Positions 24,978 to 46,038 are shown, counted from the stretch's first letter. The stretch is DNA of 64,000 nucleotides from an uncultured Acidobacteriota bacterium (GCA_963750995.1 CAVVST010000005.1:438199-502198), one strand, 5' to 3'. The notes: generated from the letters alone by a model not told the origin. Program-made: numbers and translations.

Positions 24978-25889
24978 CTACTCGCTCCCGATATAGGGGA
25001 GAAACCGACCGAGGAAGATCACGCTCACCCAGAGAGAGATGGAGACCGCGGCAACGATCTTACGCACGACAGTGGCGTGAGAGCCCGGCCTCCAGCCGCC
25101 GTTCTCCTCCACCATCGTCGGATAAAGCAGGGTCGTCGCTCCGAGCAGCATCACGCCTATCTTCCACGCGAACGCCGTGTTCTGCGTGTACTGGTCGGGA
25201 GAAGCGAGAAAGAACAGCATGCCGGTGATGATATTGATTCCGAGACCTGCCATTGCCCAGGGCAGCAGCCGATTGATCTCGGCGAGCGGCACGCCGTCGA
25301 CGAGTCCCAGTAGTCGCAGGTTCACCACGAGCACGACACCGAACAGCAAACACAGGCCGACGAAATGGAACACCTCGCATATCGGCCAGACCCATGGGTG
25401 ATCCAGCACGAGTTTCGCTCCCGCGATGGCGGGATCTGGCCAGGCAGGCGCATACGCGAGCGCGCCTTCCGCGAGGATTTCGGGGTGTCGAATCTGGCCG
25501 CCGATCGTCGCGGCGCGCCCGACCAGGACGAAGCTGACGAGCGACAGCACCATCGCGGCCGGGACGTGCCAGCGACGGGGCCGCCACAGCGCCAGCCACG
25601 CGACGAGCCCTGTGATCTCCATGGCGATGAGCGCCAGCAGCGCGGCGTTGCGATGAGCGGCCACGAGGTCTTCTGAAACGCTGCCCCTGTTTCGAAGAAT
25701 GAAATACGCGGCGTCGCCGCTCAGATACGCGGGAATGCCGATCAAGGCAAATCCAAAGAAGATGAGGAAGCTGGCGCGTCGCAGTTCTTCGTTCCGACGG
25801 ACCAGCGACAACCCGAACAGCGCCAGGCCGGCGGCGAAGCCGATCGTCGGCGCATGGTTGAGCAGCAGGTGAAGATGCGCAAGGTTCAC
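24978..25889 (-). CDS. Polytopic membrane protein: His-rich N-terminal 4-TM domain fused to a DUF6644-like domain
   Basis: GTG start NLAHLHLLLNHAPTIG; AAHRNAA, GGQIRHPE, WPICEVFHFVGL, NLRLLG, FAWKI, GRFLPY. Confidence 0.75.
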   Translation of the reverse strand: MNLAHLHLLLNHAPTIGFAAGLALFGLSLVRRNEELRRASFLIFFGFALIGIPAYLSGDAAYFILRNRGSVSEDLVAAHRNAALLALIAMEITGLVAWLALWRPRRWHVPAAMVLSLVSFVLVGRAATIGGQIRHPEILAEGALAYAPAWPDPAIAGAKLVLDHPWVWPICEVFHFVGLCLLFGVVLVVNLRLLGLVDGVPLAEINRLLPWAMAGLGINIITGMLFFLASPDQYTQNTAFAWKIGVMLLGATTLLYPTMVEENGGWRPGSHATVVRKIVAAVSISLWVSVIFLGRFLPYIGSE

Positions 25890-26352
25890 GAAACGAACTC
25901 GCTGACGTACGCCATCAGGCGCCCCGCGCTCAACGCGATGAACCAGCAGCCGAGCGACGCCGCCGCGAGCAGCCTGCCACGCTGCCCGCCGCCGAAGACG
26001 CGCCTCCGCACCATGACCAGCGTAACGACTGCCAGGAGCACGAAGGCGAGCTTCACATAGAAGGCGGGGTTCGACCCGTGCTTCGCCGCGTCGGAGATGA
26101 ACAGAAGCGTTCCCGTGAGCGCTGTCAGCGCGAGTCCTGCCCACATCAGGCCGAACGTCTTTTGCAGCGACTCGAGCGGAATGCCCGGCGCGACCCCGAG
26201 CAGGCACAGGTCGATCGCCGAGCTCAATCCGACTACGGTGCTCAGGCCGAGGGTGTGAAGGAAAAGGATGAGGGGATACCGTAGAGGACGCCCGATTCAC
26301 GGATCCAGGTGGCGAGACCGGATTGCTCCAGCTGTGCGAGAACCGGTCCCAT
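25886..26352 (-). CDS. DUF6644-like 4-TM membrane protein; frameshifted
   Basis: LEQSGLATWIRES...YPLILFLHTLGL, IDLCLLG, NPAFYVKL, AGRLMAY. Confidence 0.75.
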
Positions 26353-26361
26353 CCCGAGACG

Positions 26362-27484
26362 CTACGAGCTCACCCTCCAGGCCAGCTGGGCCTGATAGCA
26401 CTCGAAAAGAATCCGGTGGAAACGCTCGACCGCGTCCTTGTTGACGAAGGGATGCGGCTGGCCATCAAGCTTGACCACTTCGGCCATGACGGAAACGACA
26501 TCCGTTTGACTGTTACCCGACATGTCAGGATTCATCAGCCTCCACGCGCGAATCTTCTCGGCGATGTTCCCGTGCCCGACGGAAGTAGGCAGGATCACGT
26601 CGACGCCGGCTTTCGTCGCCGCATCCATGAAGCGCCGAATCGAGGCCACGTGGGCCTTCATCATTGACTGGGCGTCGGTATAGTACCGGACGCCCTGCCG
26701 CCCGATCGTGGGGTCGACGCCGCCCCAGACGGCGGCCACGTGCCGCCCCTCGTCGGACGCCACGCTCTTCCGGTTCGTCAGCGGCTCGATAATCATCGAC
26801 AGCGTGCCCGGCGTGTGGCCCGGCGTGATGTAAAGCGTGACAGTGACGTCGCCGAGCCGGATCTGCTGGCCGTCGGTGATGACCATGTCCTTCCGGGGCT
26901 TGAACTGCGCAGGCGAGTTGTCTTTCCCCACGACATCCCAATCGGCGGTCGACATCGCCACCCGCGCGTTCGGGTACGTGTCCTGCAGGGTCTTCGCGCC
27001 CCAGGTACCGATCGTCGTGGGCGTGGGTCACGATGATGTATTTGATGGTGGTGGGATCGAGACCGAAGTGTAGCAGCCCGAGCACGAGCTCCCTGCTCGA
27101 GTAGTGGAAGTTCGCGTCGATTACGATGATCCCTTCAGAAGTATTGATCGCCCAGACGGCAGCCGTTTTGGTGCCGATGAAGAAGAGATTGTCAAAAATG
27201 TCCGCCGGCCACGCGAACCATTCCTTGCGCGGCACGACCGCCGACCGATCCTGCACCGACATCTGGTCTGGCAGTTTTGGCTCTGCGCACACTTGATCGA
27301 ACAGACGCTGGAAAATGTGAAACGGCGCCAGTGGATTCTCCACTGACGGCTTGATGGCCGCGCGTGCCGCATCGACATGGTTCTTCGCCACGACAGCCTG
27401 CGCGTGCGCATCGGTGGCCATCCAGCCGGCGATCACTGCAACGCCGCACCAGGATGCCAGGTAACTCGCAGCGCCTGTGGTCAT
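26362..27484 (-). CDS. Secreted metallo-beta-lactamase-fold hydrolase (subclass B3-like scaffold); frameshifted
   Basis: IFDNLFFIG, TSEGIIVID, IKYIIVTHAHDDRY, TPGHTPG; signal ending AHA. Confidence 0.8.
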
Positions 27485-44545: not shown

Positions 44546-44620
44546 CCCATCCTCCCCCGCTGATGGCACCCCTCGGACACGGGTAGCGACGGTTGCCGGC
44601 TACTGCGTGCCTGCAGTCGC

Positions 44621-45040
44621 CTAAGGGGTTCCCAGACCCAGGCCCGAATCACCCAACTCGATCTTCTTGCCGTCAGGCAGGGTCATCGCGTTGACCAAGA
44701 TGCCCTTCGTGGCTCCCCCCGACACCTTTGGGGGGTATCCATACAGCGTCAACTTGGTGCCCGGGGCCAACGTCTCTTTGGTAATACCGTACCTGGCCAA
44801 GCCGGCGACGCCTTGCCCCAAGATGGCTACGTACTTCGTCGTCACCGCGCCCTCCGTGACGTCCAAGAACATGGACGGATGGGGGTTGACGAGCGCCACC
44901 CTCGTGATCACGCCGGTTACCGACACCTTCTTCTGGGCCTCCCAGAAATTCGCAACCGAGTGATGGGCCTGCACAGAGGCCGTCCGCATGACGAGCACAG
45001 CGGCAAGCACGACAATCAACATACTTGCGCCTAGTCTCAC
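44621..45040 (-). CDS. DUF6152-like secreted protein
   Basis: GTG start, signal ending VQA, then HHSVANFWE; NPHP. Confidence 0.78.
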   Translation of the reverse strand: MRLGASMLIVVLAAVLVMRTASVQAHHSVANFWEAQKKVSVTGVITRVALVNPHPSMFLDVTEGAVTTKYVAILGQGVAGLARYGITKETLAPGTKLTLYGYPPKVSGGATKGILVNAMTLPDGKKIELGDSGLGLGTP

Positions 45041-45077
45041 AGTATTCCTCCGGTTTCTAGAGCTTCTTACTGGCGAC

Positions 45078-46038
45078 CTACTTTGGGTCGTTGTCTTCGT
45101 CGTACGGCGAGGGCGTGGCAACTTTTATCTGCCACCAGGCGCTCTCGGGGTCGCACGTAAAGTTTGACAGCGCAGGCTGCGGCGCCTTGACGTAGTGCCA
45201 TGTCCAAGTCCACGGTTGCTTCAGAAAGATCTTGTCCTCTAGCGTGAACGTGATGTCGATCTTGTTGGCAGAGATCTTCTTCCAGCGCTCGGTGACCTTC
45301 TTCGCTGCGGAACTGGCTATATGGAGATGATCGTCGATCCCATCCGGATCGAAGGGGAAATTCGTGGTTTCGATGACCAACTCTTCGCCTTCCATCCACC
45401 CGATCGAGTGTCCCATCGAGAAGAGGAAGTGGGGCTCCGGATGTTTTCGCCCGTCCATGTAAATGACCCGAGTGAGGCCCTCCGAGAACGAATCGGTCGT
45501 CATTTGGATCTCCATTCGATGGGGACCCAGCATGCGCACCGCTCCAATCTCATGATCCATGACGGTCGGCAGGGAATTGGGCAGACACAGATGCATTCCG
45601 GACATCATTTCGTCACGGAACGCCATCCAGGCGTGTCCTCGCTTGTTCAGGAAATCCTTGATCCCGAGCTTCGCGCCGCCCTTGGCTTCCCAGGGGTGTG
45701 AACAGCGTGTCATGGGAGCACCGGACGGATCCTTGATCGCCCCGCAGGCTGCAGCTGAATCGAATCCAAAACCGGACACCTCTTTGTAGCCGTCAATCGC
45801 CCAGTAGCCGCTAAAATCCCCTGGCTCGGTCGGCTTCACGAACTCCGCAGCCGGTGGGGCCGCCCCCCGCCCTCCAGGACCCTGGCCGCGCGCCCCCTGG
45901 CCCTGACCCTGCGCCTGCTGGCCACCTTGGGCCGCGAGGGTAGGTCGAGCCCATGAGGGTCAAGACCGCGAGAACCACGAGTCCCCTCGCCACGTTCCAG
46001 TTTGGTTCAGTGTGTCGCGTGTGCTTGACGCCCATCAT
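45078..46038 (-). CDS. Secreted two-Cys family protein, DDHLH subtype; frameshifted in the Gly-rich N-terminus
   Basis: DFSGYW, HLCLPNSLP, GWMEGEELVIET, FDPDGIDDHLHIASS, EDKIFLKQPW, FTCDP. Confidence 0.78.

Follow-up and report, generated by a model that had tools for sequence, protein, structure and literature searches.

In the copper-handling CopC-CopD and YcnI-YcnJ systems, the gene of an exported β-protein with an N-terminal His metal ligand adjoins that of a polytopic membrane protein with conserved His residues, and in Escherichia coli the lipocalin-like periplasmic protein YceI is encoded together with YceJ, a homologue of cytochrome b561. Here we describe a conserved envelope module of four uncharacterised protein families that bears a likeness to both arrangements. 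Two instances of it, runs A and B, lie in a 64,000-nucleotide stretch of DNA (the window) from an uncultured Acidobacteriota bacterium (GCA_963750995.1 CAVVST010000005.1:438199-502198, here G000:C5:438199-502198). The four families are DUF6152 (DUF, domain of unknown function), a partner protein that in runs A and B contains a DDHLH motif, a small DUF6644 membrane protein, and a fusion of a His-rich membrane domain with DUF6644. The host genome measures 5.5 Mb in six contigs, is 89% complete and has a G+C content of about 64%. Coordinates are window positions unless they carry a genome (G) or locus (L) prefix.

Like CopC-CopD and YcnI-YcnJ, the module places the gene of an exported protein with a predicted N-terminal His (DUF6152) beside those of His-bearing membrane proteins, and the DUF6644 proteins of relatives give sub-threshold matches to CopD. 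Unlike these systems, however, DUF6152 is predicted to adopt an oligonucleotide/oligosaccharide-binding (OB) fold and not a cupredoxin-like sandwich, and the module has an extra, putatively calycin-like partner and reaches up to about 100 copies per genome. The likeness to YceI-YceJ lies in a gene for a predicted periplasmic calycin-type barrel beside one for a four-helix membrane protein with a conserved His, but no sequence or profile similarity to that pair was found, the His residues of the module are placed on the periplasmic face only, and the module is larger by an OB protein and another membrane subunit. As in TonB-dependent utilisation loci (the SusC/SusD polysaccharide utilisation loci and the receptor loci of proteobacteria), one genome contains many repeats of a set made up of a receptor, exported accessories and hydrolases. 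Here, however, the accessories are a predicted OB protein and calycin barrel and not SusD-like, the receptors are of the CarboxypepD_reg/OMP_b-brl_4 type, and the module also occurs without a receptor. The SoxH-like metallo-β-lactamase (MBL)-fold proteins, quinoproteins and c-type cytochromes that adjoin the module elsewhere are reminiscent of the NCBIfam ‘quinoprotein relay system’ (TIGR04558/TIGR04559), from which it differs in that these MBL proteins score 79-104 bits against a cut-off of 280, the MBL-fold protein of the window is B3-like, and neither run has a quinoprotein. Finally, DUF6152 shares a predicted N-terminal His and a distant second invariant His with His-brace copper proteins (lytic polysaccharide monooxygenases, X325, PmoB), but its scaffold, an OB fold of about 110 residues with a second His directly after the first, is unlike those known.

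Both runs lie on the minus strand, with the gene order and coordinates that an initial annotation of the sequence had given them (Table 1). Four-base overlaps, as derived from the open reading frame (ORF) coordinates, join the partner and MBL-fold genes (ATGA, 27481-27484) and the two DUF6644 genes (GTGA, 25886-25889) of run A, both of which the annotation had also listed, and the two DUF6644 genes of run B (ATGA, 42676-42679). In run A, the stop of the small DUF6644 gene overlaps the GTG start of the fusion. The remaining intergenic gaps within both runs are shorter than about 135 bases, and promoter and terminator scans of the runs returned sites no more frequently than in shuffled sequence. 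Between A and B, identities amount to 31% for DUF6152 (E 6e-13), 33% for the DDHLH partner (E 8e-35), 40% for the small DUF6644 protein (E 3e-23) and 46% for the fusion (E 9e-83). The four shared proteins are old paralogs and not products of a recent duplication.

On five independent lines of evidence, the linkage of the four families is real and far exceeds chance, which bears out the co-occurrence proposed from the window alone. Within the host genome, a same-strand partner ORF lies within 500 bp of 76 of the 98 DUF6152 ORFs (51 downstream, 25 upstream); for a further seven, such an ORF is found on the opposite strand. Eight of the nine DUF6644 loci lie within 3 kb of a member of this pair, a number that none of 20,000 shuffles reached (mean 1.27, maximum 6). 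Neighbour lists, and these lists only, were taken from a gene caller based on G+C content at third codon positions, which is incomplete (76% coding density). For the grouping of proteins into families a strict clustering rule was used; single-linkage clustering over-merged families.

Outside the host genome, we examined 80 loci of other Acidobacteriota, found by a scan of species genomes with the fusion alignment. They come from Bryobacterales, which predominate, Terriglobia, Vicinamibacterales and metagenome-assembled genomes (MAGs) labelled ‘gp5’ or ‘gp6’. The source name of one homologue (P0068) points to Vicinamibacterales for the relatives of the host genome. A small DUF6644 gene is adjacent on the same strand in 74 of these loci, at least one member of the DUF6152-partner pair lies within 3 kb in 62, and both members do so in 39. 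When only the 57 loci with at least 3 kb of flank on each side are considered, both are present in 33. At least four gene orders occur, namely DUF6152-partner-fusion-small DUF6644, small DUF6644-fusion-DUF6152-partner, fusion-small DUF6644-DUF6152-partner and DUF6152-fusion-small DUF6644, and the linkage has therefore survived rearrangement. For three loci with a module of the acidobacterial type, the source MAGs bear the labels ‘Bifidobacteriaceae’ (L006, L042) and ‘Acidimicrobiia’ (L035); mis-binning or mislabelling is likely.

Genomes with few copies give the same result. In G020, G023 and G028, which have 8, 1 and 2 DUF6152 matches, respectively, copies directly adjoin the sole DUF6644 pair found, and G020 carries an unbroken partner-DUF6152-DUF6644-DUF6644 string. 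The association also crosses the phylum boundary: on a Sphingobium plasmid, a partner-DUF6152-partner-DUF6152 array adjoins a receptor gene and two genes of the DUF6644 family (E 5e-35 and 6e-26), and a Croceibacterium plasmid has the order DUF6152-DUF6152-partner-receptor. Among 31 related genomes, 20 have all three families (DUF6152, partner and DUF6644), eight have none and three are partial; because these genomes are kin and not independent samples, this phyletic pattern serves as supporting evidence only.

The initial annotation had seen in the two runs a repeated four-gene scaffold. This scaffold is not a single fixed one; the host genome contains two modules of very different copy number, about 76 DUF6152-partner pairs and nine DUF6644 loci. 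The latter comprise 16 DUF6644 ORFs, and the His-rich N-domain is present at three of them. The third of these fusion loci (G000:C5:233961-248736) holds the closest paralogs of the run B proteins, with identities of 58% for the fusion, 61% for the small DUF6644 protein, 54-60% for the partner and 39% for DUF6152, which suggests that the module was duplicated as a block. The partner, the small DUF6644 protein and the fusion of each run have their best paralogs at the other two loci with a fusion; DUF6152 shows this pattern in run B, and in run A only as a tie. None of the four proteins was placed in a characterised family by membership tests, and no mention of DUF6152 or DUF6644 was found in the literature searched. 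As far as these searches show, the module is undescribed.

The Pfam model of DUF6152 (PF19649, gathering cut-off 27 bits), to which the copies of runs A and B match clearly (Table 1), returned 96 matches in the host genome, 94 of them above the cut-off, and none in 14 control genomes; the count of 98 ORFs was obtained with a profile built from the window copies. About 35 copies lie in a 450 kb stretch that contains the window, and copy numbers in relatives range from 0 to 112. In 84 of the 98 genome copies an HH pattern directly follows the predicted AxA-type cleavage site, and an alignment of 43 sequences that span several orders shows H23, H24, H51 (in an NPH motif) and G91 to be invariant. 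The two elements of a His brace, a mature N-terminal His and a second His ligand, can therefore be recognised at the sequence level, the cleavage being predicted. The predicted structure (predicted local distance difference test score, pLDDT, 84.9) is an OB fold. Among the structural matches listed, nearly all are OB-fold proteins (best Z-score 8.2), and SSB and the anticodon domain of LysRS match with E 2e-3; a match of this kind is generic and says nothing about function. In a profile search against the Protein Data Bank (PDB), a large adhesion protein of biofilms (6xi3) was matched weakly over its residues 333-402 (E 4.8e-5), and a search for longer proteins containing DUF6152 gave one match, without an informative fusion. 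Predicted complexes of DUF6152 with its partner scored 0.01, 0.42 and 0.24 around a mark of 0.32, and count neither way.

The partner belongs to a very large family. At E ≤ 1e-3, a profile search retrieved 21,728 representatives of clusters formed at 50% identity, and the host genome contains 149-150 family ORFs, or about 120 genes after merging of fragments. It is commoner than DUF6152 in the relatives, for which the partner counts are lower bounds (at least 89 against 16 in G027, for example). No Pfam or NCBIfam model matched any of the eight members scanned per library, which comprised those of runs A and B, four others from the window and two to three from other genomes. Searches of the profile against PDB sequences returned nothing better than E 0.33, and the Atlas search led to unnamed clusters only. 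The model of the run A partner is of moderate quality (pLDDT 71.7). Foldseek relates it to calycins with E 2.5e-4 and a target-normalised TM-score of 0.5-0.6, and the top structural matches are fatty-acid-binding proteins (FABPs), UnaG, nitrobindins and similar barrels (best Z = 8.8, r.m.s.d. = 3.5, 112 residues aligned). A Z-score near 8 ranks as middling in the tool's guidance. The assignment holds at the level of the fold only, and the partner is predicted to be a calycin-like (lipocalin/FABP-like) barrel.

Family-wide features of the partner are a Cys pair, a GxW strand and a WEG..L.V.T hairpin, and no His is conserved. The motif DDH[LMIV]H occurs in only 2 of 150 family ORFs of the host genome and in none of 114 in the 80 outside loci. 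It was therefore rejected as a family-defining motif and is the trait of a small subfamily. It follows that the description of DUF6152 and its partner as a ‘His-rich periplasmic metalloprotein pair’ fits only DUF6152 with its invariant His residues. A distinct subtype occurs in many Bryobacterales loci among L008-L057 (for example L008:5926-6843), where the partner gene immediately precedes the fusion and a Gly-rich stretch of about 35 residues is inserted into the WEG hairpin.

For the membrane proteins, scores with the Pfam model DUF6644 (PF20349, cut-off 27 bits) are borderline (Table 1). Fusion A reached 28 bits in a six-frame search, and the truncated ORF of the small DUF6644 protein A had no match. 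The paralog profiles, in contrast, are unambiguous: all four DUF6644 proteins of runs A and B match a profile of genome paralogs with E-values from 1e-38 to 1e-50, and the paralogs reach 97 bits on Pfam. The family assignments of the initial annotation hold for DUF6152, the amidase and the MR_MLE enzyme and, with this qualification, for DUF6644; the DDHLH protein matches no model. The DUF6644 proteins are predicted to be two four-helix membrane proteins encoded in tandem, one of which often has an extra four-helix N-domain. In run A, this N-domain shows a weak match to DUF2231 (PF09990; 16.6 bits over profile positions 5-129 of 139, below the cut-off of 26.4 bits); in run B it shows none. One fusion homologue (P0228) carries a precomputed PF09990 match, and in the literature searched DUF2231 and DUF2214 were mentioned in papers of the listing type only. 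All 997 homologues of the fusion are unnamed or called ‘uncharacterized membrane protein’, save one evident misname. The fusion profile found nothing among PDB sequences, and the Atlas yielded no usable named match. Six His residues (H5, H7, H12, H79, H141 and H181) and E178 are invariant in the fusion alignment, and one His in the first transmembrane helix (TM1) is conserved across 208 DUF6644 domains. Based on eight hand-set helices, Lys and Arg residues number 4.7 on the N-terminal side of the fusion and 10.7 on the other side, so that the positive-inside rule would place the invariant His residues and Glu on the periplasmic face.

Both modules are embedded among enzymes and receptors. Of the 90 DUF6152 genes of the host genome, 52 have a receptor gene no more than 3 kb away, although such flanks make up at most 15.5% of the genome; conversely, a member of the pair is found at this distance for 58 of 91 receptors. 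Recurrent neighbours of the pair are MBL-fold proteins, lactonase-like propellers of the NHL/SGL type, amidohydrolases, amidases and c-type cytochromes. Most of the recurrent neighbours belong to metal-dependent enzyme families, namely MBL proteins, amidohydrolases, SGL-type lactonases and M28 and M16 peptidases. The proposal that the shared genes bracket variable, swappable enzymes did not hold. Close relatives of the run A DDHLH protein occur in G002, G003 and G011, and at all six places examined in relatives an intact ortholog of the run A MBL-fold enzyme (60-77% identity) directly follows a DDHLH-type gene, so that a freely swappable enzyme was rejected. At two of these places (L112 and L115), in G011 and G003, the full five-gene order of run A, DUF6152-DDHLH-MBL-small DUF6644-fusion, is kept. 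At many outside and low-copy loci, the four genes directly follow one another and no enzyme gene intervenes.

The commonest extra neighbour in the outside loci, present in 27 of the 80, is a different, SoxH-like MBL protein beside the fusion. Among NCBIfam models it comes closest to ‘quinoprotein relay system zinc metallohydrolase 2’ (TIGR04559), with scores of 103.9 bits for the copy at L022 and 78.9 bits for a genome paralog (L082), both below the cut-off of 280 bits. An alpha/beta hydrolase (8/80), ‘acido-empty-quinoprotein group A’ (7/80; representative L060:4904-6484, 729 bits, above cut-off) and a c-type cytochrome (7/80) are less frequent. Among the low-copy and other relatives, G023 has the gene of a GSDH-type pyrroloquinoline quinone (PQQ) dehydrogenase immediately before its DUF6644 pair, and in G027 a PQQ-repeat propeller and a peroxiredoxin follow the pair. 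According to one paper, which serves as background and has no bearing on the four families, Acidobacteria that encode the PQQ importer PqqU lack PQQ biosynthesis (PMC12124388).

Within the runs themselves, the enzymes can be assigned to superfamilies only. The run B enzyme belongs to the enolase superfamily, with both Pfam MR_MLE domains (N and C) matched, and every NCBIfam dehydratase equivalog scores far below its cut-off. For the run A amidase, all NCBIfam amidase models likewise remain below their cut-offs. The MBL-fold enzyme of run A was considered as a subclass B3 beta-lactamase (NF033105). It is B3-like, but its two fragments score 45.4 and 39.7 bits against a cut-off of 240, and nothing supports a beta-lactamase. 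Receptor A is TonB-dependent-receptor-like; it reaches 24.7 bits with TonB_dep_Rec_b-barrel (cut-off 27), and the Plug domain is unmatched. A further receptor of the window, at 49786-52845, has a weak Plug match (17.7 bits).

We tentatively favour a periplasm-facing metal relay as the function of the module, since DUF6152 carries three invariant His residues, one of which is the predicted first mature residue, and the fusion a His cluster on its putative periplasmic face. Invariant His residues of this kind are a hallmark of metal sites, and the cluster of the fusion suggests a corresponding acceptor or donor site. The linkage of the four families, the TM1 His of the DUF6644 domains and the metal-dependent families among the neighbours also speak for a relay. 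More generally, these sequence features make a metal or redox role plausible. In such a relay, DUF6152 would bind a metal ion, most likely copper or zinc, through its N-terminal His and the His of the NPH motif, and would exchange it with the His-lined periplasmic face of a DUF6644 heterodimer, as is thought for CopC/CopD and YcnI/YcnJ. The variable calycin partner might act as an adaptor that binds a client or a small ligand, and the exported metalloenzymes encoded alongside, such as MBL-fold enzymes, amidohydrolases, lactonases and peptidases, would be served. The DUF6152-partner pair would have multiplied to about 76-90 copies in the receptor-linked catabolic loci of this lineage, with the few DUF6644 pairs supplying them in trans.

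Several points weigh against a metal relay. The main difficulty is copy number, as we know of no metallochaperone with anything like 90 copies per genome. No His is conserved in the partner family, and the adaptor role given to it is a guess. The amidase-signature enzymes among the neighbours need no metal, and the quinoprotein, c-type cytochrome and peroxiredoxin neighbours point to redox chemistry over metal delivery. As to CopD (PF05425, cut-off 32.1 bits), the sub-threshold matches on DUF6644 ORFs of three relatives (22-25 bits, E 1.6e-4 to 6.1e-4) speak for a relay, but the model has no match in the host genome, and an hhalign comparison of the fusion alignment with a single CopD sequence was negative (probability 0.5%). 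A more far-reaching formulation, which we regard as less likely than not, would see in DUF6152 a novel, tiny OB-fold metalloprotein with an N-terminal His that forms, with a vast, unrecognised family of calycin partners and the His-lined DUF6644 heterodimer, an undescribed periplasmic machine for metal insertion or oxygen/peroxide activation. In dominant soil bacteria (Acidobacteriota, Sphingomonadales), this machine would belong to the core equipment of catabolic loci linked to receptors, with about 100 copies in some genomes.

The same His residues could instead serve a periplasmic electron relay, in which the DUF6644 heterodimer, together with the DUF2231-like N-domain where there is one, holds heme b or a redox metal close to the periplasmic surface and links the membrane quinone pool to DUF6152; the latter would be a small His-ligated redox or oxygen-activating centre, and the calycin partner would hold an organic substrate or cofactor. 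The invariant TM1 His of each DUF6644 domain would make a bis-His site in a heterodimer, and the neighbours named above are consistent with this idea: the PQQ dehydrogenase in the DUF6644 operon of G023, the propeller and peroxiredoxin of G027, the quinoproteins and cytochromes of the outside loci, the SoxH-like MBL proteins closest to a quinoprotein relay model, and a peroxiredoxin and monooxygenases that adjoin the Sphingobium copy. However, the invariant His residues all lie on one predicted membrane face, so that a membrane-spanning two-heme conduit is not indicated, DUF6152 conserves no Cys or Met of the sort that usually binds copper in electron-transfer proteins, and the enzymes of the two runs are of the hydrolase or dehydratase type and not redox enzymes. 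With its quinoprotein, cytochrome c and peroxiredoxin neighbours, the electron relay is only somewhat less probable than the metal relay. That the module hands over cargo appears less likely still, though the receptor linkage keeps this explanation in play. The calycin partner would here take small organic compounds imported by the receptor and pass them to periplasmic hydrolases, with the DUF6644 pair, where present, as a 12-helix inner-membrane permease and DUF6152 as a docking or gating subunit. Small hydrophobic ligands are typical for the calycin fold, and the fold matches of the partner include barrel domains attached to serine hydrolases and enzymes similar to penicillin-binding proteins. 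The proximity of DUF6152 genes and receptors, and the tight DUF6152-partner-receptor operons of the window and of Croceibacterium, would also be in keeping with such a role. Yet it leaves the three invariant His residues of DUF6152 and the His cluster of the fusion unexplained, no similarity of DUF6644 to any transporter family was detected, and the low-copy genomes have the four genes without an adjacent receptor detectable by the profile used, which misses proteobacterial receptors.

It is highly improbable that the runs form no functional unit at all, their likeness stemming from an island crowded with paralogs or from decaying pseudogene remnants. The density of DUF6152 copies around the window would fit this explanation, and so would the frame breaks in four genes, namely the receptor, MBL-fold and small DUF6644 genes of run A and the DDHLH gene of run B (Table 1). 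Chance is opposed by the shuffle test, the low-copy genomes and the cross-phylum Sphingobium example, and the five-gene order is kept in G011 and G003. The breaks, moreover, look like assembly errors of the unpolished long-read type, for several reasons. Such breaks occur throughout the genome, where 51 of 101 receptor genes fall into 2-9 ORFs, among them a receptor at 11752-15007 in six pieces. A public contig derived from short reads is 93% identical to positions 25780-27125 and covers the breaks near 26278 and 27004; it has one extra base after 26278 and one fewer at 27004, both differences fall at runs of the same base, and neither break is present in it. After both corrections, the MBL-fold gene becomes a single frame of 394 codons and the small DUF6644 protein A is full length. 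Finally, orthologs of the MBL-fold enzyme in three relatives (G002, G003 and G011) are unbroken. For these reasons the pseudogene reading of the runs was rejected. Breaks as pervasive as these distort any gene count from this assembly.

Table 1. Genes of runs A and B and further module genes of the window, with family scores and frame breaks in the assembly
Feature	Position	Strand	Assignment	Frame break
Run A, outer-membrane receptor	31122-34426	-	CarboxypepD_reg 78.5 bits; OMP_b-brl_4 374.5 bits; TonB-dependent-receptor-like	near 32050; ORFs 31901-34426 (OMP_b-brl_4 model 1-549) and 31122-32081 (549-838)
Run A, exported amidase-signature enzyme, 772 aa	28796-31114	-	PF01425 101 bits	
Run A, DUF6152	28324-28728	-	68.5 bits; predicted mature N terminus HHS; NPH motif	
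Run A, DDHLH-subtype partner	27481-28296	-	putative exported calycin-like β-barrel; conserved Cys	
Run A, MBL-fold enzyme	26362-27484	-	NCBIfam fragments 45.4 and 39.7 bits; intact orthologs	near 27004, at HxHxD motif
Run A, small DUF6644 membrane protein	25886-26352	-	paralog profile E 3.8e-38	near 26278
Run A, fusion of His-rich N-domain (four predicted TM helices) and DUF6644	24978-25889	-	DUF6644 25.9 bits	
Run B, DDHLH-subtype partner	45078-46038	-	signal peptide from 46038 in another frame	probable, near 45900, signal-peptide region
Run B, DUF6152	44621-45022	-	54.8 bits	
Run B, enolase-superfamily enzyme	43328-44569	-	RRDFFK twin-arginine motif; MR_MLE_C 146.7 bits; MR_MLE_N 30.6 bits	
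Run B, small DUF6644	42676-43194	-	Pfam 23.4 bits (<27); paralog profile E 4.9e-50	
Run B, fusion of His-rich N-domain and DUF6644, 310 aa (P0121)	41747-42679	-	DUF6644 27.1 bits; C-domain alone 30.9 bits	
Further unit (3-base gaps), DUF6152	20623-21054	+		
Further unit, partner	21058-21954	+		
Further unit, receptor	21958-24921	+		
Further pair, partner	8670-9701	-	without DDHLH	
Further pair, DUF6152	8221-8649	-		

Beyond the two runs, the window holds a further DUF6152-partner-receptor unit and a further pair (Table 1). Partner genes without an adjacent DUF6152 gene are also present, as two tandem fragmented genes at 3376-5954 on the plus strand and as a longer, 448-residue form at 48231-49577 on the minus strand. 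The stretch between runs A and B (35252-41739) is a catabolic island and not a random spacer; encoded there are a fragment of Amidohydro_2 (35252-35962), another enzyme of the enolase superfamily (36550-37809), a thiamine pyrophosphate enzyme (38338-39789) and a peptidase of family M28 (40246-41739).

In soil, few bacteria are as abundant as the Acidobacteriota, and in their genomes a two-protein pair without an assigned function is present in up to about 100 copies, inside poorly understood receptor-linked loci. One member of this pair, the partner, represents a very large family that lacks a Pfam or NCBIfam model. The low-copy genomes and the cultured Sphingomonadales carriers offer a simple starting point for study. 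As the four families occur together across two phyla, a single answer as to the metal or cofactor of DUF6152 and the DUF6644 pair could annotate tens of thousands of genes, and might supply a step that is still missing from our picture of how exported enzymes are equipped or fuelled in these bacteria.

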